Shown here: in pieces, positions 398-51,814 of the stretch | How positions within the stretch are numbered: the stretch's first letter is position 1 | Layout of the letters: each line of letters starts with the position of its first letter | DNA from: a virus | Lineage: Duplodnaviria; Caudoviricetes | IMG/VR virus record: IMGVR_UViG_3300037467_002078 | Span: 1 to 53,655 of that record | Direction: 5' to 3' (one strand) | DNA length: 53,655 nucleotides | Program-made: the position numbers and the translations under genes | The notes under the pieces: generated by a model | What the model saw: the letters and a program-made list of their open reading frames with translations, nothing else | Databases searched by the model: none | What the model was told of the DNA's origin: nothing

Positions 398-1012
398 ATG
401 CCAATATCAGGTCTTCTAATAAAAGTTGGCCTTTGGGCCGCACTTATTTTCACAATAATCGGTGTTATCTGGAAGGGAACTTCTGCCGTCTACAACAAAA
501 TCTACGATAAAGGTGTTGTGGCTGAGCGCGAACGTTGGCAGGAAAAGGAAAATCGAGAATCTAGGAAGCGAAACGCAGAAATCGTGGCGCTCCAGATGAA
601 AATCGCAGACGCAGAAGCTGCCTACAACAAGAGGGCAAATGAAACAGGACAGAAACTTACCGTGGAGAATGAAAATGCAAGCAAAAGGAAAGACGCTGAC
701 ACTCGCAATGCTCTCGCTGGCAATATCAGGCTGCGTTGCAACCCCGATACCACCAGACGTGGAGATGCAGGAGGGGCCAAAAAAGGTGATACCAAAAACC
801 AACCCAGCGATAATGATAAAGCGGGACCCGAACTATCGGGAGAGGTTGCTGCAAATCTTCTCGGGCTCGCAAACGACGCCGACCGAGATGTCCGGCAACT
901 AGGGGCGGCACAACAAGAAATTGAGTCCCTAAACACTTTTATAGCGCAAGCTTGCAATGGAGAAACTGATGAAACGAGTACTGTTCATACTGAAGCGAAG
1001 AACCGACCTTGA
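398..1012 (+). CDS. Rz: i-spanin (Rz-like)
   Basis: N-terminal TM helix, coiled-coil periplasmic region, follows endolysin, contains embedded lipoprotein ORF. Confidence 0.85.
   Translation: MPISGLLIKVGLWAALIFTIIGVIWKGTSAVYNKIYDKGVVAERERWQEKENRESRKRNAEIVALQMKIADAEAAYNKRANETGQKLTVENENASKRKDADTRNALAGNIRLRCNPDTTRRGDAGGAKKGDTKNQPSDNDKAGPELSGEVAANLLGLANDADRDVRQLGAAQQEIESLNTFIAQACNGETDETSTVHTEAKNRP
669..902 (+). CDS. Rz1: o-spanin (Rz1-like lipoprotein embedded in Rz)
   Basis: Alternative frame inside Rz; signal peptide with lipobox (TLTLAMLSLAISGC) then Pro-rich segment; GGAG at 664-667 (start 669 or 675). Confidence 0.75.
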   Translation: MKMQAKGKTLTLAMLSLAISGCVATPIPPDVEMQEGPKKVIPKTNPAIMIKRDPNYRERLLQIFSGSQTTPTEMSGN

Positions 1013-2006
1013 CTACGGCGATTACTCCAGCAGCCTTTCGACTGGACTGCTGAATTCATCGTTGTTTGTTAATGATATGCTTATCGACAGCGGGATTGAC
1101 TCCCGCATTTCGGTCGTGACCGATAACAATGATATTGACCGTGAAGTAACAGCCTACCGACCGACCCACGTGATAATTGAAGCACTGTGGGTAGTACCTG
1201 AGAAGTTTGATATCTTAAAACGCTACCACCCTCATGTCAAGTGGATTGTGCGTCTGCATAGTGAGGCGGCATTCCTGGCCAACGAAGGGATGGCAATGGG
1301 CTGGATATTCGAGTATCTCAAGAAGCCCAACGTCTATGTTGCGGTTAACAGCATTCGATTCAGGGACGATCTTGTCAGTTTGATCTGGTGGGCCGATCGT
1401 CCAAAGATTCTGTACATGCCGAACTACTATCCCATCGGAAATTTCGTCGCGCCTGATACTTCAATTCGACGCCCAAGGACGGTGAAGATCGGTTGCTTCG
1501 GCGCCATTCGCCCACTAAAGAACCAACTGGCTCAGGCCATAGCCGCGTTGAAGTTTGCCGACGAAATTGGAGTCAAGCTGGAGTTTTATGTCAACGCCCA
1601 GCGGGTTGAGATGAAGGGCCAGCCGGTGCTGAGAAATCTTGAGGCTATGTTTGATCATACTGGCAAACACAAGCTCGTGAAGATCGACTGGCTGGAACAC
1701 CGAGACTTTCTTGATGTGGTGTCTGGAATGGATATGTGCCTCCAAGTATCTTTTTCGGAGACATTCAACATTGTTGCGGCAGATTCAGTCAGCCGTGGGA
1801 TACCGACAATTGTGTCAAGAGAGATACCCTGGGCCAAGGCTGGTTTTGCTAACCCAACCAGTATTGATAGCATGGTTGTCGCTATGAAAAACACTTGGCC
1901 ACCCGCTAAGAGGGCGGCCAACGTGACAAAGAACCAACGGGGTTTGGCAACGTACTCCCGTAACTCCCAAAGGCTATGGGGAGATAGAACTCTCTGGCAC
2001 TGCTAA
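969..2006 (+). CDS. Glycosyltransferase, GT-B fold (GT4-like)
   Basis: GAIRPLKN and ETFNIVAADSVSRGIPTIVS resemble the GT4 G-R-x-x-x-K and E-x-F-G-x-x-x-x-E-A-x-x-x-G-x-P motifs; GGAG upstream of ATG 969. Confidence 0.8.
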   Translation: MKRVLFILKRRTDLDYGDYSSSLSTGLLNSSLFVNDMLIDSGIDSRISVVTDNNDIDREVTAYRPTHVIIEALWVVPEKFDILKRYHPHVKWIVRLHSEAAFLANEGMAMGWIFEYLKKPNVYVAVNSIRFRDDLVSLIWWADRPKILYMPNYYPIGNFVAPDTSIRRPRTVKIGCFGAIRPLKNQLAQAIAALKFADEIGVKLEFYVNAQRVEMKGQPVLRNLEAMFDHTGKHKLVKIDWLEHRDFLDVVSGMDMCLQVSFSETFNIVAADSVSRGIPTIVSREIPWAKAGFANPTSIDSMVVAMKNTWPPAKRAANVTKNQRGLATYSRNSQRLWGDRTLWHC

Positions 2007-2954: not shown

Positions 2955-3371
2955 TCACCTCTTCAATGGCCGCTCAACAGTGATTTCTTTTGCATTCCCA
3001 AACCACTCTCGAAATCCCTTCTTCTTCAATATTTCGACTGTTTCGGCGTCATCGAACGGTTCAGGGTGCCAGCCGTAGAAATGCAGGTCGTACTGGTCGT
3101 CCAGCCAGTCACGGCCATAGAACGTGACTCTCTCGTGCCTAAGCCGCACACTCTCCGGCTTTACATACTCAACATCCCAATGTCCAGCGTCTTTAAAGTC
3201 AAATGGTTCAATTTCAACGATGGCGGCCGGAACCTGTGGATCGGTACGAGTTTTCCTCACATCACTCATACAAACAAACCGAGCTTTCACCCATTTGTCG
3301 CCACTAAAATAGTTCATTAAACAATCCAGCTCCTCACCTTTCGGCAAAACTAACAAATCCTCTATTCTCAT
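2955..3371 (-). CDS. Hypothetical protein
   Basis: ORF with GGAGG RBS within operon. Confidence 0.75.
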   Translation of the reverse strand: MRIEDLLVLPKGEELDCLMNYFSGDKWVKARFVCMSDVRKTRTDPQVPAAIVEIEPFDFKDAGHWDVEYVKPESVRLRHERVTFYGRDWLDDQYDLHFYGWHPEPFDDAETVEILKKKGFREWFGNAKEITVERPLKR

Positions 3372-3383
3372 AATTCCTCCAGC

Positions 3384-3665
3384 TCAGCGTTTCCGCTCTT
3401 TTCGTGTTGAAACTCCTGGCCCAAGCCTTGTCATGATGCAGGTCACCTCCCCAGCTCTAACTACCTTGGCGATATACCCGTCATCGCACTGAACGTGGTT
3501 TCCCTGCTCCATTTCGTGGTACGCTCGACTCAGCTCATGAGTCTTCCAGGTTACCATCCCCATCAGCAAAACTACCAGCAGAAATAAACCCAAAGCTATT
3601 CCTCGCCACGCGGTAGTTCTGCTGTTGAGGTAAATCAGATGAATGCCGAGAAATTCCGGCTTCAC
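3384..3665 (-). CDS. Hypothetical membrane protein
   Basis: One TM helix; probable GTG start overlapping the upstream stop. Confidence 0.6.
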   Translation of the reverse strand: MKPEFLGIHLIYLNSRTTAWRGIALGLFLLVVLLMGMVTWKTHELSRAYHEMEQGNHVQCDDGYIAKVVRAGEVTCIMTRLGPGVSTRKERKR

Positions 3666-3856
3666 GGATAGACTGTCTTCCAAATGATAATCGCGCAGAT
3701 TACCACAAGCGCCAGAAGACCCCACGACCACCCAGGCGAGGAACCTTCGTCCTCAACAGTGAATCGAGTACCGAAGACACTGCGTGAGTCGCGATGATAG
3801 TCGTGGCGCCTTAGGATATCTTCAGTTCCCATATATTCCTGCTTAAGTTTCTTCAT
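3662..3856 (-). CDS. Hypothetical membrane protein
   Basis: C-terminal TM helix, AGGAG RBS. Confidence 0.65.
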   Translation of the reverse strand: MKKLKQEYMGTEDILRRHDYHRDSRSVFGTRFTVEDEGSSPGWSWGLLALVVICAIIIWKTVYP

Positions 3857-3871
3857 TTCGCTCTCCTTTAT

Positions 3872-4363
3872 CTATGGCCAAGTTTCCCATTTCCGACCAG
3901 CTGCAACCCAGAGTTTCTCCGACTCAGAATGAGGGTACGGTTCCACAAATACGATCCTCTCGCAGCTAGTGTTTAAAAGAAGTTTTACGCACGTCACACA
4001 TGGGCTGGTTGTGATATACGCCGTATGTATCTGATACACGTCATGGCACTGCAAGAGCGCGTTCTGCTCAGCATGGATTGCCTGACATGAGTCAAGGCCA
4101 GTCCCACTGGGAAGGTCAGCACCCTTGCAGGCAAAAGGGTACTCAGGTCTAGTGACGAAGCAGTGTCCATTCTCGTGCTGCCCCACCTGAAAATGGGCTT
4201 CGTTGCAGTGCGGAAGACCTGAGGCGACCCCGTTGTACCCAGTGGCAAGCACGTGCCCTCTGGCGTTCAGTAGAACGCAGCCAACTTGGCGTCGAACGCA
4301 CGTAGCCCTAAGCGAGGTCTGCCTTGCCAGTGAGATAGCCCATTCATCTCGGCTAGGACGCAT
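3872..4363 (-). CDS. dCMP deaminase
   Basis: ATCVRRQVGC, TGYNG, HAEQNA and PCVTC zinc-deaminase motifs; GGAGG RBS before ATG 4363. Confidence 0.92.
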   Translation of the reverse strand: MRPSRDEWAISLARQTSLRATCVRRQVGCVLLNARGHVLATGYNGVASGLPHCNEAHFQVGQHENGHCFVTRPEYPFACKGADLPSGTGLDSCQAIHAEQNALLQCHDVYQIHTAYITTSPCVTCVKLLLNTSCERIVFVEPYPHSESEKLWVAAGRKWETWP

Positions 4364-5171
4364 CTGCTGCCTCCCACCAACGGAGTGAGGAGCCTGGACT
4401 TGTCTCGCGTAAATCCTTAAGCGCGCGCAAGAGAACCTTCGGTGATTGCCAGAGCGTGGCCGGAGCCTCCTGCTGGCCTTCATCGTCCCATACCGAGTTG
4501 ATGATAGCCTTTGCTGCCTCCCAGTTAGATTCGTAGATGTGGCTTGACGCGGCAGTCAAGTGCAGAGTACCCGGTTTAACAACGAAGTTTTGTGGACCGA
4601 AGGTGTTGAGATATCCGCAGACCAGATAGGCAACCATGCAGAAGTTAAAAACGTCATACGGCACACCCAGCCAGATATCTGAGGAGCGCATGAAGACATG
4701 CGCATTCAACTCTAGTTCATCGTAGTGTGATTGTCTGATGTTAAAGAACATGGCCACGGTGCAGGGCACATCTTTTGTTACAGGTGGGTTCTCCCGCCAA
4801 ATGGTAAGTCCTGCTTGCCTGGAATCCCTGTCCTCTAAAAGCTTGTCGACCACGTAATGAAGCTGGGCTAAAATCTTAGGCCCGTAAGCCCCGAAGAATT
4901 TTACTCCGTCATCAGAGAACTTGGCGATGTTCGGATTATAGGGCGCGATCGTCTTCACCTTGTTGTCGCCGGAGACGATCCAGTACGCCTCAGCTGCCAT
5001 GAACTTGTAATTCAGTTTCCTGGCTGGCACCTTCAACACGGGTTTTCGCATGTTAACAGCGATGGTGTGCTGTGGCAGTTCTCGAGTGAGCATCCCTCTA
5101 GGGGAAACCTCATATCCAAAGTACAAAGCTGAGTGAAGCAGGCTGAGCCATGTTTTTGTAAAATCTATCAT
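4353..5171 (-). CDS. Thymidylate-synthase homologue, probable dCMP (hydroxy)methyltransferase
   Basis: EAYW, DSRQA, DVPCT (catalytic Cys), MRSSD, HIY motifs; LGVPYD has Asp where dUMP-specific ThyA has Asn. Confidence 0.85.
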   Translation of the reverse strand: MIDFTKTWLSLLHSALYFGYEVSPRGMLTRELPQHTIAVNMRKPVLKVPARKLNYKFMAAEAYWIVSGDNKVKTIAPYNPNIAKFSDDGVKFFGAYGPKILAQLHYVVDKLLEDRDSRQAGLTIWRENPPVTKDVPCTVAMFFNIRQSHYDELELNAHVFMRSSDIWLGVPYDVFNFCMVAYLVCGYLNTFGPQNFVVKPGTLHLTAASSHIYESNWEAAKAIINSVWDDEGQQEAPATLWQSPKVLLRALKDLRETSPGSSLRWWEAADAS

Positions 5172-6103
5172 TTCTTCTCCTTGATCAGCATTTGGATGAG
5201 CGGATAATTGTCTTCAAGAGCACCTTGGAATCGCTTCCAAAATTGTGGGTGAGGGACTTGGCGCAAGTTAGTCAAGTTGAGACCAAGAAGTTCCTTGTGC
5301 GCTCTTCCTCCAAGGGCAAACACGGGGCGGCTGAAGTGGAAGTCTTTCAGAAACCACAAATCTTGATCTGAGTTGATCCAAAGAAGTTGATCTTCTCGAA
5401 TTCCAGCATTAATAAGCTGCTGCGTCAGCCACTGACTACATCCAGTATTTGAAAGCGAACCGAACGGCCACTGGTAAAACGCATCCTCGTCCTTCTGTTC
5501 GCCAAATCTGTCTCCCACCAGCACCAGCTTCGCCCTCCAATCGCCGGCTGAAGCGAGATGGAGTGGGTGCCGAGGCGCGCGGAATGCATCTAGCATGTCC
5601 TTATTAATCTTCCCACTGGACGTGTAATCAAACAGAATAGACGGGAGGTGGGTTTGATGTGGGCGCTTGTAAAAATCGTAGACAACACGGAGCTGGTCTT
5701 CATTGTCAAGCATCTCAAGATTCTTCCGAGAGAGGTAGTTGTTTCTGACAACCTCCCATGAAGGAAGGCATCTCACTACTACAGCCCCACACCTGAGGGC
5801 CAAGCGTTCCAGCACGCGAATCTGCCCCTCAGTTATGCGAAGCCGGTTGTTCCGGAAGGCGACGCCGTAGGGCTCCTCACTCAACCAGCAACGATCAAGC
5901 ACGACATCTTGGTACCCCAGAAGCGCAGGCAACATGGCTTCGACATACATCCGCCCCAGCCCCTTATCGACTCTTGGGAGCGCAGAGAAGTGGACGTAGC
6001 GCGCTCCAGTTTCCTTCGCGAACTCAGTGGCAGCGGTAGTTTTGCCGCCGCCATCCGGCCCTTCAAAGATTGTTATTTTTGCCGAGGTGACATTCGTCAT
6101 CAC
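5168..6103 (-). CDS. dNMP kinase fused to a uracil-DNA-glycosylase-like domain
   Basis: N-terminal IFEGPDGGGKTT P-loop and LDR motif; C-terminal LVLVGDRFG...WPF...WIN...FALGGRA...VPHPQ resembles UDG-superfamily motifs. Confidence 0.75.
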   Translation of the reverse strand: MMTNVTSAKITIFEGPDGGGKTTAATEFAKETGARYVHFSALPRVDKGLGRMYVEAMLPALLGYQDVVLDRCWLSEEPYGVAFRNNRLRITEGQIRVLERLALRCGAVVVRCLPSWEVVRNNYLSRKNLEMLDNEDQLRVVYDFYKRPHQTHLPSILFDYTSSGKINKDMLDAFRAPRHPLHLASAGDWRAKLVLVGDRFGEQKDEDAFYQWPFGSLSNTGCSQWLTQQLINAGIREDQLLWINSDQDLWFLKDFHFSRPVFALGGRAHKELLGLNLTNLRQVPHPQFWKRFQGALEDNYPLIQMLIKEKK

Positions 6104-6512
6104 GATGGTTTTCCTCTCTAGAATCGATTCGTGGATTATATCCGGCCGCTATCAAGATTTCGAGCGTCTTCGGCCCAACCCAACCAGCCGGTTTAGTGAC
6201 ATCTACGACATGCCCGCGCTTAGTACGACCTCGCTCCTTGGTCATGTTGGCACGCTGGACGTCCGCCCAGAGTGCATCCCACGGTAGCCCCAGCATGTCA
6301 GCTGTACCCATGGAAACGTAGACGATGTCGATCAAGGCATCTGCCTGGGCAGCCAAATCTTGGGCATTGCAGGCTTCTTGAAACTCAATGAACTCCTCGC
6401 CGATGAAATCGATTCGCTCTCCTAGCTTACGTCGGGTCAAGTGGACGGGTTTACGGTGCGATAGAAGACCGAACTTTTGGTGAAACAGAATTACATCTTC
6501 AAATTTTGCCAT
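6063..6512 (-). CDS. MazG-like all-alpha NTP pyrophosphohydrolase
   Basis: EEFIEF, DALIDIVYV and VQRANMTK motifs. Confidence 0.85.
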   Translation of the reverse strand: MAKFEDVILFHQKFGLLSHRKPVHLTRRKLGERIDFIGEEFIEFQEACNAQDLAAQADALIDIVYVSMGTADMLGLPWDALWADVQRANMTKERGRTKRGHVVDVTKPAGWVGPKTLEILIAAGYNPRIDSREENHRDDECHLGKNNNL

Positions 6513-6515
6513 GCG

Positions 6516-7298
6516 TTATCTCTTCAGTTTGCGGCATACCCACAGATTGTTGCGAGCATAGTCTGGGTACAATGGGGCAAAGATGCAGCTGATGGCATCG
6601 TTGTCGTAATATTCGGAAAGCGCAGTCCTCAGCACTTTGATCGCCTCGTCCTGTTTGACCAGCTCAGGAGTAGAAAGCCCCGCCTGGCCACTGTTTGCTT
6701 TGCCGATGTGCTTGATGTCCATGAATGTACCGAACCGACGCTCGATCTTGAACCCAACCTTCTCTGTCGCCTTCTGAAGTTCCGGGACGGTATATTCGTG
6801 GATGTGATTGGCTGCGTGCCGCACTCCATCGTAGCATGGAGTGGACATCAGCATAGTGCCTCCTGGTTTGAGAAGGTCGAAGCAGCCCTTCAAAAGCTTT
6901 GCCCCATGTTCGACTTTCATGTGTTCAATGACTTCATAGTGGACAACAACGTCGAAGCCTTCTGGCCGAAGCTTCTTCAGTTCCTTCTGGCGTTCGACGA
7001 AGTTGAATTCCCCTAGGAAGGTTAGCCTCTGGCTATTGGACGGCTTCAGCTTGTTCATGTCTACACCAACGTAGGTATTGACATGGGCTGAAGCCCCGCC
7101 AGTCAGAATCTTGCTGAGGGGACGGTCCTCACCACATCCGATTTCCAGCACGTTATCTTTTGTGGTGATGAACCGTCTCGCAAAACTCCAACGCCAGAAA
7201 TGCGCGCTATAGTCCCGATGGAGGGACTTCCCATGTCCAGCTTCACGAAGCTGGGTTGTATCAAAATCCCGTCCATCACGGATTTTTTCTCGACGCAT
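6516..7298 (-). CDS. Class I SAM-dependent methyltransferase (small-molecule type)
   Basis: VLEIGCG motif I, YVGVD, FDVVVHYEVIEHM, LLKPGG, STP...HIHEY; no DNA-MTase DPPY/NPPY or PCQ-type motif IV. Confidence 0.88.
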   Translation of the reverse strand: MRREKIRDGRDFDTTQLREAGHGKSLHRDYSAHFWRWSFARRFITTKDNVLEIGCGEDRPLSKILTGGASAHVNTYVGVDMNKLKPSNSQRLTFLGEFNFVERQKELKKLRPEGFDVVVHYEVIEHMKVEHGAKLLKGCFDLLKPGGTMLMSTPCYDGVRHAANHIHEYTVPELQKATEKVGFKIERRFGTFMDIKHIGKANSGQAGLSTPELVKQDEAIKVLRTALSEYYDNDAISCIFAPLYPDYARNNLWVCRKLKR

Positions 7299-7332
7299 GT
7301 CCTTCTCCCCTCTTCTTGGTTTTTAAAAAAAA

Positions 7333-7950
7333 TTACTTCCTGGCTTCCGGCGGGTTCATCCCTTTCTTCTTGAGATGGTTCCGGTACCACGTGACGTATC
7401 CCTTCTTCGAATCGTCCAGATCAAACTCGCTCTGAACTTTCTGGAAGATCTTTTCATCCGACAGCTTGCCCTCCATAATGAGTTCCTGGAAGCGAGCCGC
7501 CGCAGTCATGGCCTTTTGTGGTTTGGCCGCGGGTTTGGTCACGGATTTCGTGGTTGTCTTTGCCGCAGATTTGGCTCCAGGTTTTTCTTTTGCCGGAGCC
7601 TTCGCTTCGACCGACTTCTTAGTTTGAGGCATTTCAGTCTCCTGTGTGATTGCAGTTGGTGAAATACGGCCTAGGTAATCCCAGGCCTCCTTTGAAATCC
7701 CCGCCGTCTGAGCAATTCGCACGAAGTGTGCGATCGCCTTTTCGGCAGGGTAATTGACGATCGGCTTATACCGGCCGTCAAATTCGCTGATCTTGGCTTT
7801 TTTCACGTCAAGACCATCATTCACGTCAAGTGGAATGAACTTGACAAAATCTTCGCCCCGGACAATCTCAAGGCACGTGTACCGATTATGGTCATAACAC
7901 GGCACAGGAACTAAAACTTCCGGGGTCTTTGCAGTCGCTTTTTTCTTCAT
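7333..7950 (-). CDS. Hypothetical basic protein with conserved C-terminal helical domain
   Basis: K/A-rich linker and C-terminal ...KKGYVTWYR domain shared with the neighbouring gene. Confidence 0.8.
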   Translation of the reverse strand: MKKKATAKTPEVLVPVPCYDHNRYTCLEIVRGEDFVKFIPLDVNDGLDVKKAKISEFDGRYKPIVNYPAEKAIAHFVRIAQTAGISKEAWDYLGRISPTAITQETEMPQTKKSVEAKAPAKEKPGAKSAAKTTTKSVTKPAAKPQKAMTAAARFQELIMEGKLSDEKIFQKVQSEFDLDDSKKGYVTWYRNHLKKKGMNPPEARK

Positions 7951-7953
7951 GGC

Positions 7954-8460
7954 TTAGGCTTCTTTGCGCTTGGCTTCGGAACGGTACCAGGCGGGGTAGT
8001 GCTTCTTGTTGTCGCCCAGCTTGAACTCTTCCTTGATAACGGCCCAGATTTCAGCGTTGGTCTTCCCATCGACGATCATGGCGCGGCAAACTGCCGAGAC
8101 CGTACGCTTGCCAGTGAAGCGTTCCGCAGACTTCTTTTCGGAAACCTTTTTAATGATTTCCTTGGCTGCAGCAGCGATGTCTTTCTTGACTTCCTTCTTC
8201 ACAGCCTTGACCACGGCATCGGCTACCGCCATGTCAACTGGCGCATCCACTGTTTTTTCATCGATAGACTTTTCGGGCGTCGCATGGCCGTTGCCTAAAA
8301 ACTCTTTCGCTTCACCAACGAGAATTCTAAACTCAGTTACACCGCCCCAGTTTCCCTTTTCGATGAACTTATCATAGTCAATTTTGTTGACGCCCAAGCC
8401 CTTCAAAAAACGAGTGGCGGAGTCGCGGGTCTTCACAAATTTTTCGTCGGTGTTGCTCAT
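7954..8460 (-). CDS. Hypothetical basic protein with conserved C-terminal helical domain
   Basis: C-terminal ...KKHYPAWYR domain; follows promoter and CTTGCTGAGGAG RBS. Confidence 0.8.
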   Translation of the reverse strand: MSNTDEKFVKTRDSATRFLKGLGVNKIDYDKFIEKGNWGGVTEFRILVGEAKEFLGNGHATPEKSIDEKTVDAPVDMAVADAVVKAVKKEVKKDIAAAAKEIIKKVSEKKSAERFTGKRTVSAVCRAMIVDGKTNAEIWAVIKEEFKLGDNKKHYPAWYRSEAKRKEA

Positions 8461-10328: not shown

Positions 10329-10990
10329 TTGTCATTCGGCTTCGGCGCAAAGCGTGTGTCGTTCAGCATGGGTTTTACCCTCTTCTCCCACAATTTCTTC
10401 AGCTTTGGAAGATCAGACCTCACGTACTGAATTTCATTGTCAGGCGTAGGGTAAACCTCGCCTTGGTCGACATAAACCAGTGATGGAATAACCACCTCGA
10501 TGTGCGGAAGTTGGATCAGCGCCGCCAACCCGTAGAGGGACAACTGCTCCATATATTCCTCGTTGAGCTCCTCCCGAAACTTACCGGTCTTCCAATCACG
10601 AAGGCGAAGAATCTTGTGGTCATTGGTGCTAGCACAGTCAAGTTTCAGACGAAGCCAGCAATTGTTCCAGTCATCCCACCGCGTAATTTCCCAATTCTTG
10701 GTAAACGCCCAATTGTCCTCCACGACCATGCCGTTGATCTTCTTCTTGTACTGGGCCTTCAGCTCCTTAAAGACGCCGGCGAAACTCTTCAATTCCGCAG
10801 GAAGTACCCTCAACTTGCCTTTAATGTATTGGTCGGCTTTGTCATGAACCTCTGCTCCTCGGGCCAAGGCTTGGCTCGGTGGTTCTTTCCGTTTCTCGAT
10901 GAACAAGTACTTAGCCTTTGCTGGGCATTGTTTGTATACGGAGTACTTGCTGAAACTCCACGCTGTGATCTTCTTTGGCGCTAGTGCCAT
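10277..10990 (-). CDS. Cas4/RecB-like PD-(D/E)XK exonuclease
   Basis: WSFS..Y..CP, RGAEVH, KLD...DWKTG, QLSLY, C-terminal CKWC...C cluster. Confidence 0.88.
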   Translation of the reverse strand: MALAPKKITAWSFSKYSVYKQCPAKAKYLFIEKRKEPPSQALARGAEVHDKADQYIKGKLRVLPAELKSFAGVFKELKAQYKKKINGMVVEDNWAFTKNWEITRWDDWNNCWLRLKLDCASTNDHKILRLRDWKTGKFREELNEEYMEQLSLYGLAALIQLPHIEVVIPSLVYVDQGEVYPTPDNEIQYVRSDLPKLKKLWEKRVKPMLNDTRFAPKPNDKCKWCHFSAAKGGPCKF

Positions 10991-12909
10991 GGCAGTAATT
11001 CTCCTTTCTTGTCGTAGTCCCTGAGCTCTGCCCAGTTAGTATTGGAAATGGCACCTTCACTCAGCATGGGGACGTCAAATTCCACTGACTCCATGCAAGT
11101 TCTAAGAACCTCCATGCCCGTTGCCACATCCTTCTTTGGAACTGATGCGGTCAGTTGGTCGTGCACGTTGAGCATCAGTTTCCACGTTGGTTTCTTGGCG
11201 TAGTAGAACCGGATGATGGCTTCTTTCGTGCAATCAGCGGCAGAACCTTGGATGAGGACATTGACTAGCTTGTAGTCAAATTCCCGAATCCGACCCAACA
11301 CCAACTTTGGTTCCTCACAGTAGTACTCACGCCCGCCCCAAGTTCTGATCGGCTGCTTGTTCTTGGCGCGAACTTTCATGTCCTTGTACATCTGCTTCAG
11401 GCCTGGGTAGAGAACCAAAATCGCCTTCTTCAGCTCACTGGACTCCTCGACTGTCATGTCATTCTTGATTGCCAGCTTTGGAGCTCCCATGCCATAGATC
11501 AGACCGAGGTTGGTGTTCTTCACAGGCTTCCGATCGTAGAACTTGCCCATCTTTTCCAACTCTGCCTTCGCATAGTCATGGAAATCAATCCACGGATTCT
11601 CGATGTACTTGTCCATCAAAGCACCGCCGTCAAAGTGGGCCAGGATGCGCGGCTCCTGCTGTGAGTAATCTCGGTCGATGAGAACCTCACCTCTAAATGG
11701 AGTGATATAACTCCGCACCAACGGCAGCGACGGCAAATCCTTGAACGGGCACTTGGGAAGTTTCTTGTTGCTCGGGTTCTCATGAAGAAAGATCGGAGAA
11801 AACTCCTTCGGCGCATTCTGGAAGTTGGGTGTGCTTGACAACCGGCCAGTACGGGTGCCAACCGAGGAATCGCCAGATGGCGTCTTGGTTTGATTCCATG
11901 TGGTATAGATGAAACCTTTTGACGCCTCGGCCACTTTCAACCACGGGTTCATGAAGGTGCTCATGCAGGTCTTCAACTGCGTCCGATACTTCAGGACGGC
12001 CAGAAGCACTTTATCCGTAACCCCAAGAAGCAAAGCCTCCTTGTTTGTCTGATATTTCCCAGTGGGTGTCATTGGAATCAGGTCAGGGTTTGCCTTCTTC
12101 GCCTTGATCATTGCCTCGATAAGTTGGTCTCCTGAATCGAGGTTGGTAACCGTCGGTAAAGTCTTAAGCTGTGCGTGAATCCACCCGTCGATCTTCAGTT
12201 GCCATTCGCCGTACATTTTCACGTCGCTTCGCAGCTTCTTCAGATCAATGGGCAATCCCTGACGCTCCATGTCCAACAAGCATGGCATGAGCTTACGTTC
12301 GCGATCATAGGCAACCAACATTCCACGGTCGTTGGTCTTTTTCCACAAAAGATCAAACAGCTTCTCAGTGCGAATGGTATCGCCATTGGCGTATTTCCCA
12401 ACTAGATCGCCGGGCGCGTGCCTAAGATATTTCATGAAGTAGTGCTCAGAGCCCCTGGACTTGCTGATCTTTACACCTTTGATTGGCTGGTTCTTTATGA
12501 GCCACTCGCCTACCTCGTCTTGCTCCTCAGGAGGCATCCCGAGAAGACGGGCGGCAGATGGCTTCAAGCTTAATTCAGTTTGATGCGGATCGTCAAGGTA
12601 GAGCAAAAACAAAGTATCATGGATTTTGTCCCATTCTGGGATCGGCAGACCCATGTGCACCTCGGCTACGTCCACGTCAAACTTGCCGTTCTGAAAGAGC
12701 AGACCATCTTTATGTTTCCATACCTTAGCCAAGGCAGCCTTCGCCGCCTCGAGGGTGCAGTTGTTTTTGGTAGCATGGCCCCACGAATAATACTTTGGAG
12801 TTTTACCATGAATTTTGATGGAAACACCGCAGGGCTTTGGCGGATAGAATGGCCGTCCAAGAATGCCATCGGTTTCAAAGTCAACTGTGACTGGTTTTGG
12901 TTGTTTCAT
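10981..12909 (-). CDS. polA: Family A DNA polymerase with 3'-5' exonuclease
   Basis: VDFET exo I, TGRLSS, DYSQQEPRILAH (motif A), RKPVKNTNLGLIYG (motif B), VHD (motif C). Confidence 0.95.
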   Translation of the reverse strand: MKQPKPVTVDFETDGILGRPFYPPKPCGVSIKIHGKTPKYYSWGHATKNNCTLEAAKAALAKVWKHKDGLLFQNGKFDVDVAEVHMGLPIPEWDKIHDTLFLLYLDDPHQTELSLKPSAARLLGMPPEEQDEVGEWLIKNQPIKGVKISKSRGSEHYFMKYLRHAPGDLVGKYANGDTIRTEKLFDLLWKKTNDRGMLVAYDRERKLMPCLLDMERQGLPIDLKKLRSDVKMYGEWQLKIDGWIHAQLKTLPTVTNLDSGDQLIEAMIKAKKANPDLIPMTPTGKYQTNKEALLLGVTDKVLLAVLKYRTQLKTCMSTFMNPWLKVAEASKGFIYTTWNQTKTPSGDSSVGTRTGRLSSTPNFQNAPKEFSPIFLHENPSNKKLPKCPFKDLPSLPLVRSYITPFRGEVLIDRDYSQQEPRILAHFDGGALMDKYIENPWIDFHDYAKAELEKMGKFYDRKPVKNTNLGLIYGMGAPKLAIKNDMTVEESSELKKAILVLYPGLKQMYKDMKVRAKNKQPIRTWGGREYYCEEPKLVLGRIREFDYKLVNVLIQGSAADCTKEAIIRFYYAKKPTWKLMLNVHDQLTASVPKKDVATGMEVLRTCMESVEFDVPMLSEGAISNTNWAELRDYDKKGELLPWH

Positions 12910-13161: not shown

Positions 13162-14004
13162 TCAATACTTCCGCTTGCCCTGCGCCGGTCTTTTTGCAGC
13201 CGTCTTTGTCGATTTTGCAGCGCCACGTCTTGCTTTTGGCGCCGGTTCTTCATCAACCGGGGTATAGGGGAAGTCAATAACTGCCTGAGCCTCCTTGTTG
13301 CGGTCCATGATGATGCCCATCAACTCGTTGGGTACCTTATCGATCGGTTCGAAGACGACGCGAAATTGCGTCTTAGGATCAGGAACCACACTCACCTTCG
13401 TGATGATTCCATGCGGAGGACGGCGAAGCGCTCCGGCAACCTGCTTGACGAACGCAGCGTAGCCTTTGACCGACGTGACGGGGAGCTTCATAAAACCGAT
13501 TGGAGTAGACTTGAAGTGATCTTCATCGTCAATGAGTTCAACTTTTCCACTCTTATCAAAGTTCCCTGCAGGGATCATCGCCAGACGGCGAGTGTTCCGA
13601 CAAGCCTTCCCGCGCCCCTTTTCCGCTGTGCCAAATTCGTTCATCTCGCACCCAGCACAAAGCCCCGACGCTCCGCACTGTTGGTTACCAGCCGCTATAA
13701 CATCTTTGTGCGGGCTCATCGTCTTATCATCGCGACCGAACGCGAAGCAAGTAGGCGATTGTGGTGTGTCTGGATCGTATTCACCCTCGTAGTAGACGTT
13801 TTCAAGGATAGAATCGACGATTATCACCGGCATCGCATTTCCAGGGATGGGCGCGTCATTCCACGACAGTACCCCAGCTTTTATGCTGAAGAACTGGCCA
13901 GCTGCAACACTGGCCTCCATCCCGGCGGCAATCTCCGCCTGTTTCGCTAACTCTTCATCCCACGCCACGATTGAAGTGGTTTTTGCTTTCTTTGCTGTTG
14001 CCAT
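13162..14004 (-). CDS. Putative single-stranded DNA-binding protein
   Basis: Upstream of the polymerase, Cys cluster, beta-rich; preceded by a gene-32-like pseudoknot; C-terminus is basic rather than acidic. Confidence 0.55.
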   Translation of the reverse strand: MATAKKAKTTSIVAWDEELAKQAEIAAGMEASVAAGQFFSIKAGVLSWNDAPIPGNAMPVIIVDSILENVYYEGEYDPDTPQSPTCFAFGRDDKTMSPHKDVIAAGNQQCGASGLCAGCEMNEFGTAEKGRGKACRNTRRLAMIPAGNFDKSGKVELIDDEDHFKSTPIGFMKLPVTSVKGYAAFVKQVAGALRRPPHGIITKVSVVPDPKTQFRVVFEPIDKVPNELMGIIMDRNKEAQAVIDFPYTPVDEEPAPKARRGAAKSTKTAAKRPAQGKRKY

Positions 14005-19055: not shown

Positions 19056-19985
19056 CTACACCGCCACTGGCGCTTTAATCGCTGGATGCGGGTCGTAGCC
19101 TTCGAGGATAAAATCCTCGTATTTAAAATCGAAGATATCCTTGACGGCTGGGTTAAGGTGCATCCTGGGAAGGTTTCTCGGCCGCCTCGTGAGCTGTTCC
19201 AAGGCTTGATTGTAGTGGTTGCGATAAACGTGCGCGTCACCTAGAGTGTGGATAAATTCGCCAGGGACTGTATTTGTCACTTGTGCGACCATCATGGTAA
19301 GCAACGCGTATGACGCAATGTTGAACGGCACACCAAGAAAGATATCCGCGCTACGTTGATACAGCTGGCAGTCCAGCATCCTTGACGGAGCACCGACGGT
19401 GTCCATATAGTTGATGGCGTGACTAGTGGTGCTCCATACCCAATTGAGCTCGCGCTTCTTATCCGGGTCAAAAAATTTCCAACGCTCCGCGAACGTCATC
19501 GGCCGCGTGTTGAACTGAAACATCACATGGCATGGCGGCAAAGCCATCTCATCAATTAATCCAACATTCCATGAAGAAACAATCAAACGGCGGGAATCTG
19601 GGCTATCCTTGATCTGGTCGATTACCTGCGAAATTTGGTCAATGCCGCGCGTGTCAGCTGCCCTAGCGCCTCTGATATCAGGCCAGCTCCGCCACTGGGC
19701 TCCATAAATTGGCCCGAGGTCTCCATGCTTGTCTGCCCACTCGTCCCAAATGGTTACTCCGTTATCGTTCAGATACTTGATGTTCGTGCTGCCCTTAAGA
19801 AACCACAGCAGCTCATGAATGACGGACTTCAGGTGAATCTTCTTTGTCGTCAACAGTGGGAAGCCATCTTGCAAATTAAACCGCAGCTGGCGGCCGAACA
19901 CTGAGAAGGTGCCAGTGCCAGTGCGATCTTCCTTAATCGTTCCAGAACTCAAGACCTCACTGAGTAAACCAAGATATTGTTTCAT
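19056..19985 (-). CDS. thyA: Thymidylate synthase (canonical, dUMP-specific)
   Basis: [51 protein letters not shown]. Confidence 0.97.
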
Positions 19986-22074: not shown

Positions 22075-22457
22075 TTCGTCTCCTTCATTGCTGCGTCGAT
22101 GGCTTCACGGATTGGCAACCCGCCCATGATGATTCCCCTAACAGATAGGTTGCCAACAGGAGCTACGTTCACTTTCCAGCCCATACTGAAATCCTTGTTA
22201 CTATCTAAGAAGTCCAACCGCTCCGCATCCTTCCGCAGCTTCTCCACTTCAGCCTTGAGCGCTTTATTCTCGTTTATCAGATATATGACACTATTTCTTG
22301 AATTGTCGCGCTCGTTGGTAAGCATGAAGTTTTCAGACTTCAACTCATCAATCTCAGGCTGGCGAGCGTACCAACCCTCACAGGCCGCCCTATTGGTGTC
22401 GCTAAAAGGAACTTGATTTATCTGTGTAGTTGCGACCCACTCTTCGAATGTTTTCAT
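22071..22457 (-). CDS. Hypothetical coiled-coil protein
   Basis: LRKDAERLDFL...REAIDAAM pattern. Confidence 0.7.
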   Translation of the reverse strand: MKTFEEWVATTQINQVPFSDTNRAACEGWYARQPEIDELKSENFMLTNERDNSRNSVIYLINENKALKAEVEKLRKDAERLDFLDSNKDFSMGWKVNVAPVGNLSVRGIIMGGLPIREAIDAAMKETK

Positions 22458-23038
22458 TTGGTAACATCCTTCCAGTCATGTGACTTGACTACCTTATTCT
22501 TCCATAGAACAGGCTCCAGGTCATATGGTAAATATAGCGGATGGGCGGGTGTTCCGTTCCTGTTCATCTTGAGGTAGTGAACTTTGCTTGGGTACCGGTT
22601 CTGGAGTAGCCGTTGCACTCCAATTCCTCGATTGAAAAGGTCTCCGTGCGCGCCCCAACCGCAGATAATCATAGATGCCTTAGACGTTGCCTTAGCAATC
22701 CACTCATTGTTATCGACGCCAACCGGATCGGGGTGGCGATAGAGAACGGCTGGGGTTGATGTCCTCAGTGCAAACAGGTTGACGATCTCTATCCCACCAA
22801 ACCCTAGCTGCTTTGCACGTTCCACGCACCGCATAACCGTCGGGTCAGGTATTTCGTGGGTGGCGGTTGACGGGTTCAGCAAGACGTAGCACACAATCGG
22901 CTTGAGTGCGTTCCACACCCGCCAGAGCGAGTAGCGGTGCTGGTTAGATGATGAAAAGACTGCGCCACTCTCTACGGTACCCATGATGCATGAGAGGTCG
23001 ATGAGTTTATCTTTACTGGGCGTCGTCCAATCAGGCAT
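22454..23038 (-). CDS. DUF1643-domain protein
   Basis: HRYSLWRVW, LLNPSTA, DPT..RC, VNLFALR.T.P, CGWG, PAHPLY; GGAGG RBS before ATG 23038. Confidence 0.85.
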   Translation of the reverse strand: MPDWTTPSKDKLIDLSCIMGTVESGAVFSSSNQHRYSLWRVWNALKPIVCYVLLNPSTATHEIPDPTVMRCVERAKQLGFGGIEIVNLFALRTSTPAVLYRHPDPVGVDNNEWIAKATSKASMIICGWGAHGDLFNRGIGVQRLLQNRYPSKVHYLKMNRNGTPAHPLYLPYDLEPVLWKNKVVKSHDWKDVTK

Positions 23039-23207
23039 CACGGCCTCCTTTAAGGAGACGCTTCTCTTCGATCTCAGCCACGATCTTCTTGGCAATTTCA
23101 AAATCATTCTCGATCCTGCGTTCAAGTTCCCAGCAGGAATCACACAAATCAGCCATGCGCCCAGGAGTCTCCTCCTCGTTGCACAGCCTGCATAGTTTCA
23201 CATCCAT
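23031..23207 (-). CDS. Small zinc-finger protein (58 aa; not in the ORF track)
   Basis: MDVKLCRLC...LCDSCWELE...; GGAGGAG RBS. Confidence 0.65.
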   Translation of the reverse strand: MDVKLCRLCNEEETPGRMADLCDSCWELERRIENDFEIAKKIVAEIEEKRLLKGGRDA

Positions 23208-50857: not shown

Positions 50858-51147
50858 CTGATATGATTAAGGAATTTTGTGCTGTTATTTTTCATGTTCA
50901 TAGCGGAAAACAGTGGTGGCAGGAGGCTCGTGACCAAATATTGCATATTGTGTACTCATCTGCAATATTCCTTATCGCCTTCTACTCAATGCCATCATGG
51001 GGTGCTGGGTTAGCATCCTTCACCCTCGGTTTTCTTCGGGAACTTGAGCAGCACCACTGGAATCCTCGTGAGGTGGGTAAGCAAGATCTTTTCTATTGGG
51101 GATTGGCATCAGTCGTGCTTACCATTGTCTATGCCTTTATCAAGTGA
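50851..51147 (+). CDS. Hypothetical membrane protein
   Basis: Hydrophobic segments; DQILH...RELEQ...DL. Confidence 0.65.
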   Translation: MVTDMIKEFCAVIFHVHSGKQWWQEARDQILHIVYSSAIFLIAFYSMPSWGAGLASFTLGFLRELEQHHWNPREVGKQDLFYWGLASVVLTIVYAFIK

Positions 51148-51814
51148 CTTGGCAAGATACACACCGCTCGTGGTAGGAGCGGCGAAGCGGCTGCACTGCA
51201 CCCTTCCCTACAGTTCTATCATCTCGATCGATGACCTTATTCAGGTTGGAATGGTAGGACTGATGCAGGCTCTTGACGAGTACGAGGACAAGGGTTACCA
51301 GTTCACTACGTACGCTAATGCACGCGTGAAAGGAGCTATGCTAGACGAGCTGCGAAAGCATGATCATTTACCAAGAAAAGCGAGGGTCGGAGTTGGATGC
51401 TTTAAAAAGACTCGGGATGCTCTAACGGCTTCACTAGGGAGGTTTCCTACGCGTGGTGAAATAGCTGCTAAGATGGGGGTCAGTTTAAACGATTGCCTTG
51501 ATATCGAGATGATTGATGAGTTTGCTTTTATCACACTGACAAGCGACGAGAATAAAAGTGGTGAAGCAGACTTGTTGGAAAATCTTTATGCGACAGAGCA
51601 AACCCCATTGGATATTCTTATTGAGAAGAATGCACTAGAGGTAATCAACTGCAAGATGAAAGATTTACCAGAAAAACAAAGGTTGGCCATGCAGTTATAC
51701 TACGGCGAAGGCCTGAGGATGAAAGAGGTTGGGGAAACCATCGGTGTTAGTGAGAGCAGAGTGTGCCAACTACTTAGCAGGGCAGTGGCGCATCTTAAAG
51801 AGCAGTACTTTTAA
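51131..51814 (+). CDS. fliA: FliA/WhiG (sigma28)-like RNA polymerase sigma factor
   Basis: Region 2 DDLIQVGMVGL...FTTYA..RVKGAMLDELRK.D..PR, region 3 LGRFPT..EIA, region 4 LP...LYY.EGL.MKEVG..IGVSESRVCQL; start uncertain. Confidence 0.92.
   Translation: MPLSSDLARYTPLVVGAAKRLHCTLPYSSIISIDDLIQVGMVGLMQALDEYEDKGYQFTTYANARVKGAMLDELRKHDHLPRKARVGVGCFKKTRDALTASLGRFPTRGEIAAKMGVSLNDCLDIEMIDEFAFITLTSDENKSGEADLLENLYATEQTPLDILIEKNALEVINCKMKDLPEKQRLAMQLYYGEGLRMKEVGETIGVSESRVCQLLSRAVAHLKEQYF

Follow-up and report, generated by a model that had tools for sequence, protein, structure and literature searches.

We analysed positions 1 to 53,655 of the IMG/VR virus record IMGVR_UViG_3300037467_002078 (Duplodnaviria; Caudoviricetes). 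This stretch of 53,655 bases, called the window throughout, is an essentially complete siphovirus genome. Its replication and nucleotide genes form a block on the minus strand, from about 2007 to 26468, and a plus-strand morphogenesis block lies after it. Our subject is a module of five genes in the former block, at 3872-7298, whose products we predict to take part in the replacement of cytosine. An original prediction, made from the sequence alone, had described a packed five-gene operon at this place, and all five genes were confirmed there on the minus strand, running in one direction with overlaps or 3-nt gaps (3 nt, 41 nt, 4 nt, and about 11 nt along the five genes). With the two domains of the fusion protein listed separately, the module consists of the following features:

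6516-7298, minus strand: class I S-adenosylmethionine (SAM)-dependent methyltransferase (MTase), 260 amino acids (aa); Pfam Methyltransf_23 at 6.7e-13, also Methyltransf_12/31/11/25
6063-6512, minus strand: MazG-like all-alpha NTP pyrophosphohydrolase, 149 aa; Pfam PRA-PH at 3.3e-16, phrog_671 at 1.9e-22
5168-6103, minus strand: fusion of a kinase and a uracil-DNA glycosylase (UDG)-like domain (kinase::UDG), 311 aa; P-loop protein
5579-6103, minus strand: deoxynucleoside monophosphate (dNMP) kinase domain, thymidylate kinase (TMPK)-like, residues 1-175 of the fusion; by P-loop, phrog_761, and fold
5168-5578, minus strand: UDG-superfamily domain, residues 176-311 of the fusion; by fold
4353-5171, minus strand: thymidylate-synthase (TS) homologue, 272 aa; Pfam PF00303 Thymidylat_synt at 1.4e-17
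3872-4363, with the open reading frame (ORF) open to 4483, minus strand: dCMP deaminase; dCMP_cyt_deam_1 at 6.8e-18 (residues 44-180), phrog_174 at 2.8e-38

Since matches to the family set in only at residues 37-44, the ATG at 4363 is the probable start of the deaminase, whose translation contains HAE and PCxxC zinc motifs. The MazG-like protein matched PRA-PH with 59.9 bits against a cut-off of 21.3, and it is a putative dCTPase. PF00303 matched the TS homologue with 64.1 bits (cut-off 24.3). Among proteins of solved structure, the closest relative of the TS homologue was the CMP hydroxymethylase MilA (6.7e-18), with true thymidylate synthases at 4e-10 or worse.

We compared the TS homologue with published residue rules for this family, given in E. 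coli numbering. In these rules C146 is the catalytic residue (PMC13326640), and the change of N177 to Asp marks dCMP as the substrate (PMC13326640, PMC8670742). An Asp or Glu in place of L143 correlates with a hydroxymethyl rather than a methyl product, as an acidic residue at this position admits water, and the change of D169 to Asn marks 5-hydroxy-dCMP synthases, occurring in all verified enzymes of that kind (PMC13326640). The stretch KDVPCT of the TS homologue aligned its catalytic Cys with those of ThyA, T4, and Xp12 and placed an Asp at the -3 position, equivalent to E. coli L143. In the stretch MRSSDIWLGVPYD, D169 is kept and N177 is replaced by Asp, so that GVPYD stands where the canonical ThyA encoded elsewhere in the window has GVPFN; the description of this protein as an Asp-type TS homologue was thus borne out. 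That ThyA has Leu at -3, H147, and N177. In one alignment, T4 gp42 showed the identical pattern of Cys, Asp at -3, D169, and Asp177, and a phmmer alignment showed MilA with Asp in place of N177 and with the stretch Asp-Val-Ala-Cys-Thr. This signature, referred to here as hmC-type (for hydroxymethylcytosine), was present in 72/72 TS homologues of the MTase-linked metagenomic loci described below, and in a second set the acidic -3 residue, D169, and Asp177 were found in all 68 parsable TS homologues. From the combination of Cys, Asp at -3, D169, and Asp177, the TS homologue is therefore predicted to be a dCMP 5-hydroxymethylase with 5hm-dCMP as its product.

A different product would follow if the TS homologue were a dCMP methyltransferase like that of phage Xp12. 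The DNA would then contain 5-methylcytosine (5mC), the deaminase would make thymidine nucleotides from 5-methyl-dC, and the MTase would be unrelated. The Xp12 enzyme does have Asp at N177, and in Xp12 the genes for a MazG-like protein, the TS homologue, and a deaminase adjoin one another. Moreover, deaminases encoded next to TS homologues in modified contigs were often 5mC-selective, and five of seven tested TS partners made 5mdCMP (bioRxiv 2024.12.05.627091). However, the -3 residue is Asp in the window, T4, and MilA but Asn in Xp12, in which the Cys is followed by Pro and a C-terminal tail like that of ThyA is retained. The C-terminus of the window protein does not align with the tail of ThyA and Xp12. 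Neither of these marks of an Xp12-type dCMP methyltransferase, a non-acidic residue at -3 and such a tail, is present in it. The canonical ThyA of the window means that a deaminase bypass is not needed, and the dihydrofolate reductase (DHFR) gene that adjoins the Xp12 enzyme had no counterpart among the Pfam-scanned ORFs of the window, a set that takes in part of the small ORFs. The restriction data presented next bear on the same alternative, which we consider unlikely on the whole.

No match to the region was found by Megablast in 50,697 phage records, and the relationship is visible at the protein level only. At that level, all five proteins were found, with their order kept, in Stenotrophomonas phage AXL3 (gp27-gp31), Pseudoxanthomonas phage PW916, and the Manatee Spring siphovirus MW202621, with identities of 43-79% across the three and of 46-79% for AXL3. 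Two of these phages add evidence on the base. We take Eam1105I to be an isoschizomer of AhdI. AXL3 virion DNA resisted 35 of 37 restriction enzymes, KpnI and Eam1105I among them, and was cut by TasI and Tru1I only, whose sites consist of A and T alone; from this the authors deduced an alteration of G/C bases, leaving the base itself unnamed, and they assigned the genes to thymidylate synthesis (PMC7504290). The 5mC-containing DNA of Xp12, in contrast, is fully cut by KpnI and AhdI, and T4gt DNA with 5-hydroxymethylcytosine (5hmC) resists 81.9% of enzymes (PMC7653180). The resistance of AXL3 DNA to KpnI and Eam1105I thus argues against plain 5mC. A full-text literature search on AXL3 together with hydroxymethylcytosine found nothing.

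The records of these relatives give ordinary thymidylate synthesis (AXL3, PW916) or generic labels and leave the base unnamed. The TS orthologue of AXL3 (5977-6786) is annotated as 'thymidylate synthase', and that of PW916 (3280-4098) is called 'deoxyuridylate hydroxymethyltransferase' in both record and paper. Both labels conflict with the Asp at the N177 position, a cytosine-substrate mark. AXL3 differs from the window phage in using ThyX where the latter has ThyA (PMC7504290). The PW916 label would fit a TS homologue that is a dUMP hydroxymethylase, with a thymine derivative as the base; a flavin-dependent 5-hydroxy-dCMP synthase, giving 5-hydroxycytosine, belongs to the same set of alternatives, since TS homologues can make 5hodCMP (PMC13326640), and a glycosyltransferase (GT) is present in the window phage. 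We regard these alternatives as very improbable. Both the window and all relatives have Asp in place of Asn at the N177 position. The MRSSD stretch retains the Asp at D169, so the mark of a 5-hydroxy-dCMP synthase of the RB69 gp48 type is missing, while all verified 5hodCMP synthases are D169N (PMC13326640). Finally, cutting of AXL3 DNA only at A/T-only sites (PMC7504290) points to altered G/C and not T.

The kinase::UDG fusion protein was examined domain by domain. The kinase part had no Pfam match above cut-off but matched PHROG 761 'thymidylate kinase' at 9.2e-12, and it contains the P-loop GPDGGGKTT and a DRCW motif where we take a DR(Y/H)-type motif to be the mark of the TMPK family. An AlphaFold2 model of the fusion, made with 29 homologues, had a mean predicted local distance difference test score (pLDDT) of 93.7, and in VIA-align the kinase domain resembled TMPKs, deoxynucleoside kinases, and YorR (2axp/3kb2) with Z scores of 11.7-13.0. 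Since TIGR00041 scored only 17.4 bits, far below its cut-off of 83.25, the kinase is best placed as a divergent member of the dNMP/thymidylate kinase family.

Foldseek of the whole fusion model returned the kinase domain only; the second domain surfaced with a wide VIA-align search. Residues 176-311 matched the Thermotoga maritima UDG 1l9g (Z 10.1, root-mean-square deviation 2.9, 127 aligned residues), UdgX 6ail (Z 9.9), the Thermus thermophilus UDG 2d3y (Z 9.6), and the active UDG domain of phiLo PolA, 9qhs (Z 9.2). The four entries, at Z 9.2-10.1, confirm by fold what had been called UDG-like from the sequence. Motif A, LVG[E/D], is acidic in 26/29 homologues and reads LVGD in the window, 28/29 retain the His of HPQ in motif B, and a PF pair and N244 are invariant or nearly so across the 29 sequences. 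One distant homologue of the fusion (locus L083) passes the Pfam UDG model PF03167, with 25.0 bits against 24.3. The only near-invariant Cys of the domain is C222, and the iron-sulfur cluster with four Cys that we take to be typical of UDG family 4 is therefore absent. In phiLo, the corresponding residues in LLVGE and LNHP are catalytic (PMC13697223); motif A has Glu there and Asp in the window. The original prediction had taken the glycosylase-fold domain as a sign of a further-modified cytosine. With motifs A and B kept, it instead looks like a competent uracil-type glycosylase or base-binding module and not a hypermodifying enzyme. The domain probably removes or senses uracil-type bases, which a nucleotide pool rich in deaminase would generate. 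In phages with modified pyrimidines, namely phiLo, YerA41, and SPO1, a UDG domain is likewise joined to an enzyme of replication or nucleotide metabolism, in their case PolA (PMC13697223); the window phage, for which we predict modified C, has a dNMP kinase in that place. The kinase::UDG fusion is another example of repair coupled to the supply of modified nucleotides.

Outside the module, ThyA, PolA, and a GT had been predicted to lie elsewhere in the window, and ThyA and PolA were located there, together with a candidate GT that is seen through the protein atlas only. These and other features of the window are:

957-2006, plus strand: putative GT-B (GT4-like) glycosyltransferase, 349 aa; protein-atlas feature and structure search
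7333-7950, minus strand: p205, Lys/Ala/Pro-rich, with a C-terminal domain of about 55 aa; upstream of the MTase
7954-8460, minus strand: p168, small p205 paralogue with the same C-terminal domain; by alignment to p205
10981-12909, minus strand: family A DNA polymerase (PolA); Pfam DNA_pol_A at 3.4e-50
19056-19985, minus strand: canonical thymidylate synthase ThyA; Pfam at 6.3e-118
22454-23143, minus strand: DUF1643 protein, at 1.1e-38
51044-51814, plus strand: sigma-70 family factor (regions 2, 3 weak, 4), at the end of the structural/late block

The window also encodes an ATP-dependent ligase, an SNF2 helicase, a PD-(D/E)XK nuclease, and a primase-helicase. DUF1643 is presumably a member of the UDG-like clan, in which case its protein would be a second UDG-superfamily protein in the window.

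We next consider how far the module is conserved. An IMG/VR scan with the MTase returned 74 loci; downstream genes were counted in the 64 loci with at least 3.5 kb downstream, and upstream genes in the 51 loci with at least 7 kb upstream of the MTase. Downstream, the TS homologue was present in 63/64 loci (the exception being L079), MazG in 59, the deaminase in 58, the kinase domain in 41, and the UDG domain in 35. Gene order and strand were identical in all 54 loci holding all four anchors. Phyletic co-occurrence of the five genes had been proposed as a check, and with order and strand constant in 54 of 54 scorable loci, the five-gene arrangement is not due to chance. Upstream, p205, SNF2, PD-(D/E)XK, and PolA occurred in 50-51 of the 51 loci (p205 and PolA in every one), and p168 in 32. 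Median identity was highest in the module for the MTase (72% over the 74 loci), with 68% for PolA, 58% each for the TS homologue and the kinase, and 47% for MazG. In relatives without kinase::UDG (L011, L016, L022, L061), ORFs of 122-145 aa with no Pfam match lie between MazG and the TS homologue, and in L032 the same slot holds an HNH/NUMOD4 homing endonuclease, a dUTPase_2 protein, and a weak DUF1599 protein.

The MTase belongs to a virus-specific family, with 762 homologous clusters, almost all of them viral; its atlas clusters were 85-100% viral. It also appeared on nine contigs of metagenome-assembled genomes (MAGs) assigned to six or more phyla. Seven of these contigs (L088-L094) are phage-sized, at 34-54 kb, carry the full module, and bear the MAG labels Thiobacillus, Lentisphaera, Saccharibacteria, Chromatiales, Flavobacterium, Nitrospira, and Betaproteobacteria. 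The module-bearing MAG contigs are probably binning artefacts, with phage contigs swept in, and not evidence of hosts. An MTase homologue with 44% identity was seen at 5848-7686 of a 635-kb proteobacterial MAG contig (L095). The C-terminal 330 aa of its 612-aa ORF had no Pfam match, no TS module was found within 6 kb, and the adjoining metallophosphoesterase and seryl-tRNA synthetase genes are uninformative neighbours.

Taken as a whole, the module is best read as a system for T4-like pre-replicative cytosine substitution, an explanation that we hold to be probable, and the base would most likely be 5hmC. In this pathway the MazG-like enzyme would hydrolyse dCTP to dCMP, removing the canonical nucleotide and supplying the substrate. 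The TS homologue would then transfer a hydroxymethyl group from methylene-tetrahydrofolate to C5 of dCMP, the TMPK-like kinase domain would phosphorylate 5hm-dCMP, and a host NDP kinase would complete 5hm-dCTP. The phage PolA would incorporate 5hm-dCTP and would have to accept this modified dCTP. The dCMP deaminase and the separate ThyA would divert part of the dCMP to dTMP, with ThyA taking the dUMP made by the deaminase. The earlier proposal of a pathway analogous to nucleotide-level substitution in T4 is upheld by the residue signature of the TS homologue and by the resistance of AXL3 DNA at every G/C-containing site tested.

The logic is the same as that of T4, with its gp56 dCTPase, gp42 dCMP hydroxymethylase, gp1 dNMP kinase, Cd dCMP deaminase, Td, and alpha/beta-glucosyltransferases. 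T4 and the window have in common dCTP removal, a TS-type dCMP hydroxymethylation signature, a dNMP kinase, a deaminase together with a true TS, and, in the window phage, a putative GT-B enzyme. Compared with T4, however, the window is a siphovirus genome of about 54 kb with the genes in one operon. Its dCTPase analogue is of the MazG/PRA-PH type, whereas the gene 56 dCTPase of T4 is annotated 'dUTPase' in its record. Its kinase, of the TMPK-like kind, forms a fusion with a UDG-fold domain, and the module has a conserved class I SAM methyltransferase in addition. Xp12, which replaces cytosine completely at the nucleotide level, resembles the window in its neighbourhood of a MazG-like protein, an Asp177 TS homologue, and a deaminase but differs in having DHFR, and no homologue of the class I MTase or of kinase::UDG was found in the 50 kb of Xp12 searched. 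A neighbourhood of TS, PRA-PH, deaminase, and PolA is a reported hallmark of cytosine-modified metaviromic contigs (bioRxiv 2024.12.05.627091). The 5-carbamoyloxymethylcytosine contigs found by MetaGPA have the same core of TS homologue, PRA-PH, and deaminase with a group-transfer enzyme that decorates 5hmC; that decorator is a carbamoyltransferase with a proven product, and its counterpart in the window is a SAM methyltransferase with a candidate role (PMC8670742).

Several points weigh against this reading. Identity of the TS homologue is as low as 24% to T4 gp42 and 28% to the Xp12 enzyme, the Trp that aligns with E. coli W80 is missing from it, and the L143 rule is given by its source as a correlation only (PMC13326640). 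The substrates of MazG and the kinase are guesses, and the product is a prediction from residue rules. Every substrate and product in the pathway is inferred; what was observed comprises gene content, folds, signature residues, synteny, fusions, and the restriction resistance of a relative. The kinase is missing from 23/64 loci and is therefore dispensable or replaced there. Relatives with the TS module but without the MTase exist (L080-L082), which makes the MTase an addition to the core pathway.

We turn now to what the MTase may add. Its model (pLDDT 89.4) has a standard class I fold, and Foldseek and VIA-align gave tied matches to many small-molecule and RNA methyltransferases, among them CmoM 4htf (Z 18.6), TleD (18.3), ChlM (18.2), RebM (18.0), UbiG (16.7), and HEN1 (16.4). 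Because these generic class I matches are tied, no substrate of the MTase can be inferred from its fold. Residues invariant in the family include HRDYxAHFxRW, GCG, YVGVD, EVIEH, STP, and AANHIHE. The (D/N/S)PP(Y/F/W) motif of amino-methyltransferases is absent from the 260-aa protein, which has STPCYDG at the equivalent place. PF00145, the family of DNA cytosine-5 methyltransferases (C5-MTases), did not match the window MTase and occurs only as a fusion partner in its relatives.

These matches leave room for an RNA or small-molecule enzyme, such as a Hen1-like 3'-terminal 2'-O-methylase or a CmoM-like tRNA enzyme acting against host anticodon nucleases, with its position explained as that of a neighbouring early gene. 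Six of 33 PDB profile matches were named small-RNA 2'-O-methyltransferase or HEN1/Hen1, the NCBIfam Hen1 model TIGR04074 aligned residues 48-203 at 5.8e-7, phrog_4752 'tRNA methyltransferase' matched at 1.8e-7, CmoM is the top row of the tied VIA-align matches, and an ATP-dependent ligase is among the phage's genes. Within the family, E122/E125/H126 and H165/H167 vary little or not at all, and they may be counterparts of the Glu/Glu/His/His set that binds metal in Hen1. A likeness to Hen1 beyond the Rossmann core was tried and set aside as unproven, as MTase residues 110-215 alone gave no Hen1 among 15 PDB matches. The Hen1 model itself reached only 28.4 bits against a cut-off of 340, and no Pnkp-like partner was seen. 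An RNA enzyme would, moreover, be hard to reconcile with the C5-MTase fusions and same-slot substitutions described below, and we judge such a role improbable.

Among the MTase homologues, 26 longer proteins align with the query at 36-47% identity over 94-99% of its length, and 20 of them carry PF00145. A rescan of 10 of these proteins found a nearly full-length N-terminal PF00145 domain in six (E 1e-15 to 1e-20), and in the fusions the query-like domain stands mostly toward the C-terminus. The fused C5 domains keep the motifs FAGGF, NPPC, ESV, PQxRxR, and RGVxPxV (18 sequences) and are therefore predicted to be active. The linker between the two parts contains a domain of about 55 residues to which p205 and p168 can be aligned with their C-termini; E-values for this domain come from a database of 26 sequences, in which p205 against p168 gave 9e-9. 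This C-terminal domain is possibly a small DNA-binding domain. The middle parts of p205 and p168 are histone-H1-like and rich in Lys, Ala, and Pro.

A second IMG/VR scan, made with the fusion alignment, gave 80 loci, of which 79 were analysed (L104 was left out, and several lie on contigs of the first scan). The slot upstream of MazG-TS-deaminase-PolA held a stand-alone C5-MTase in 45 of these loci, a class I MTase in 19, and both in five. There was no TS homologue in nine loci with a C5-MTase only and one with the class I MTase only, mostly truncated. The loci with both had fused ORFs of 843, 639, and 669 aa (the 639-aa ORF on two near-identical contigs) and, in one instance, an adjacent pair in opposite order. 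Many viral contigs in the set L106-L182 carry the C5-MTase directly upstream of a group made up of MazG, a TS homologue of the hmC type, a deaminase, and PolA. Among stand-alone MTase homologues, 44/74 have a basic C-terminal tail of Lys, Arg, Pro, and Ala, ending in APF or APW in 32 of the 44, a sequence reminiscent of a docking peptide or of a tail that binds DNA. The fusions, the exchange of one enzyme for the other at the same position, and the DNA-binding-like appendages argue, short of proof, for a tie of the MTase to DNA cytosine and against an RNA or metabolite role. The MTase would then probably be a second modification layer on DNA cytosine or 5hmC. Phage C5-MT/TET (5mYOX) systems, which make hmC after replication, likewise use a DNA C5-cytosine methyltransferase in cytosine hypermodification, but the modules described here set a C5-MTase or class I MTase beside a nucleotide-level TS homologue, and a class I MTase partner is not mentioned in the available text of that report (PMC8256090). 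The MTase is likewise not mentioned in the available text of the MetaGPA (PMC8670742) and TET (PMC8256090) papers, and we did not find the pairing of pre- and post-replicative cytosine enzymes discussed in the cited literature.

A specific product of such a second layer would be 5-methoxymethylcytosine, if the MTase acts on the hydroxymethyl group of the nucleotide or the DNA; in the window phage the product could alternatively be a methylated glycosyl-hmC. The MTase is strictly syntenic with the hmC-type TS homologue, its structural neighbours include the hydroxyl or carboxyl O-methyltransferases RebM, AtmM, UbiG, JHAMT, and CmoM, and the fusions and positions link it to DNA cytosine enzymes. 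A full-text literature search found no paper on a methoxymethyl product made from phage hydroxymethylcytosine by a methyltransferase, and such a base would therefore be undescribed. O-methylation nevertheless appears doubtful to us. The tied structural matches include N- and C-methyltransferases as well, a C5-methylating fusion partner gives no hydroxyl group as a target, and the GT does not accompany the MTase through the family. A broader proposal is that the MTase founds a new class of DNA-base methyltransferases with motifs unlike those of C5, N4, and N6 enzymes, acting on the 5hmC hydroxyl or on N4; we offer it tentatively and would expect it to fail sooner than to hold. Any new doubly modified cytosine in these phages is a conjecture of about the same standing.

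A DNA-directed role of the MTase has observations set against it. The protein has no known DNA-MTase motif, its profile matches in the PDB are small-molecule and RNA methyltransferases (UbiG at 1.6e-10, HENMT1 at about 1e-8), and the window copy lacks the basic tail. The fusion of two methyltransferases could merely reflect a shared anti-restriction use, and why an hmC pathway should be accompanied by a C5-MTase is a puzzle of its own, although the C5-MTase may mop up residual unmodified C. The original prediction had suggested from the small-molecule methyltransferase that the cytosine is modified further. The tie to cytosine has gained ground through synteny and through C5-MTase fusion and replacement, but nothing fixes the product, and O-methyl-hmC is a guess.

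The putative GT at 957-2006 lies apart from the module. By feature score, its nearest atlas clusters are viral and of the 'glycosyltransferase family', and its stored model matched bacterial GT4 clusters in the atlas with template-modelling scores (TM) of 0.71-0.76; Pfam and PDB sequence searches with the protein were blank. In phage records, homologues (43% identity) were found only in the Ralstonia jumbo phages RsoM2USA and phiRSL1. AXL3, PW916, and MW202621 differ from the window phage in this respect, as no GT was found in them, and it was present in 0/5 CheckV-complete relatives. The methyl-glycosylated hmC put forward earlier therefore cannot be the general product of the family, and the GT is an accessory of the window phage, an add-on that may glycosylate 5hmC. 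A second candidate GT, p280 (13162-14004), was rejected, with no Pfam or PDB match and matches only to PHROGs of unknown function. RsoM2USA has in common with the window the GT, at 43% identity, and the UDG-like domain, at 33% over residues 173-306, and its TS homologue is hmC-type (KDVPCT ... RSQDGIFGMGND). Given these three, RsoM2USA may also carry a modified cytosine.

The gene set described here is already present in published genomes under generic or wrong labels. For AXL3 and PW916, which have been proposed for phage therapy against Stenotrophomonas and Pseudoxanthomonas, our reading offers a specific, testable assignment, namely 5hmC made at the nucleotide level, and would correct the 'dUMP' label. 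It also marks out the small, extremely conserved MTase as the candidate for a second, possibly new, modification of cytosine. If the MTase does add a second modification, a widespread lineage of environmental siphoviruses, with hundreds of clusters and including AXL3 and PW916, would carry an undescribed doubly modified cytosine, and the C5-MTase::MTase fusions would be two-headed enzymes for unmodified and hydroxymethylated cytosines. A new methyltransferase directed at 5hmC or cytosine would be of interest both for phage anti-defence and for epigenetic sequencing tools.

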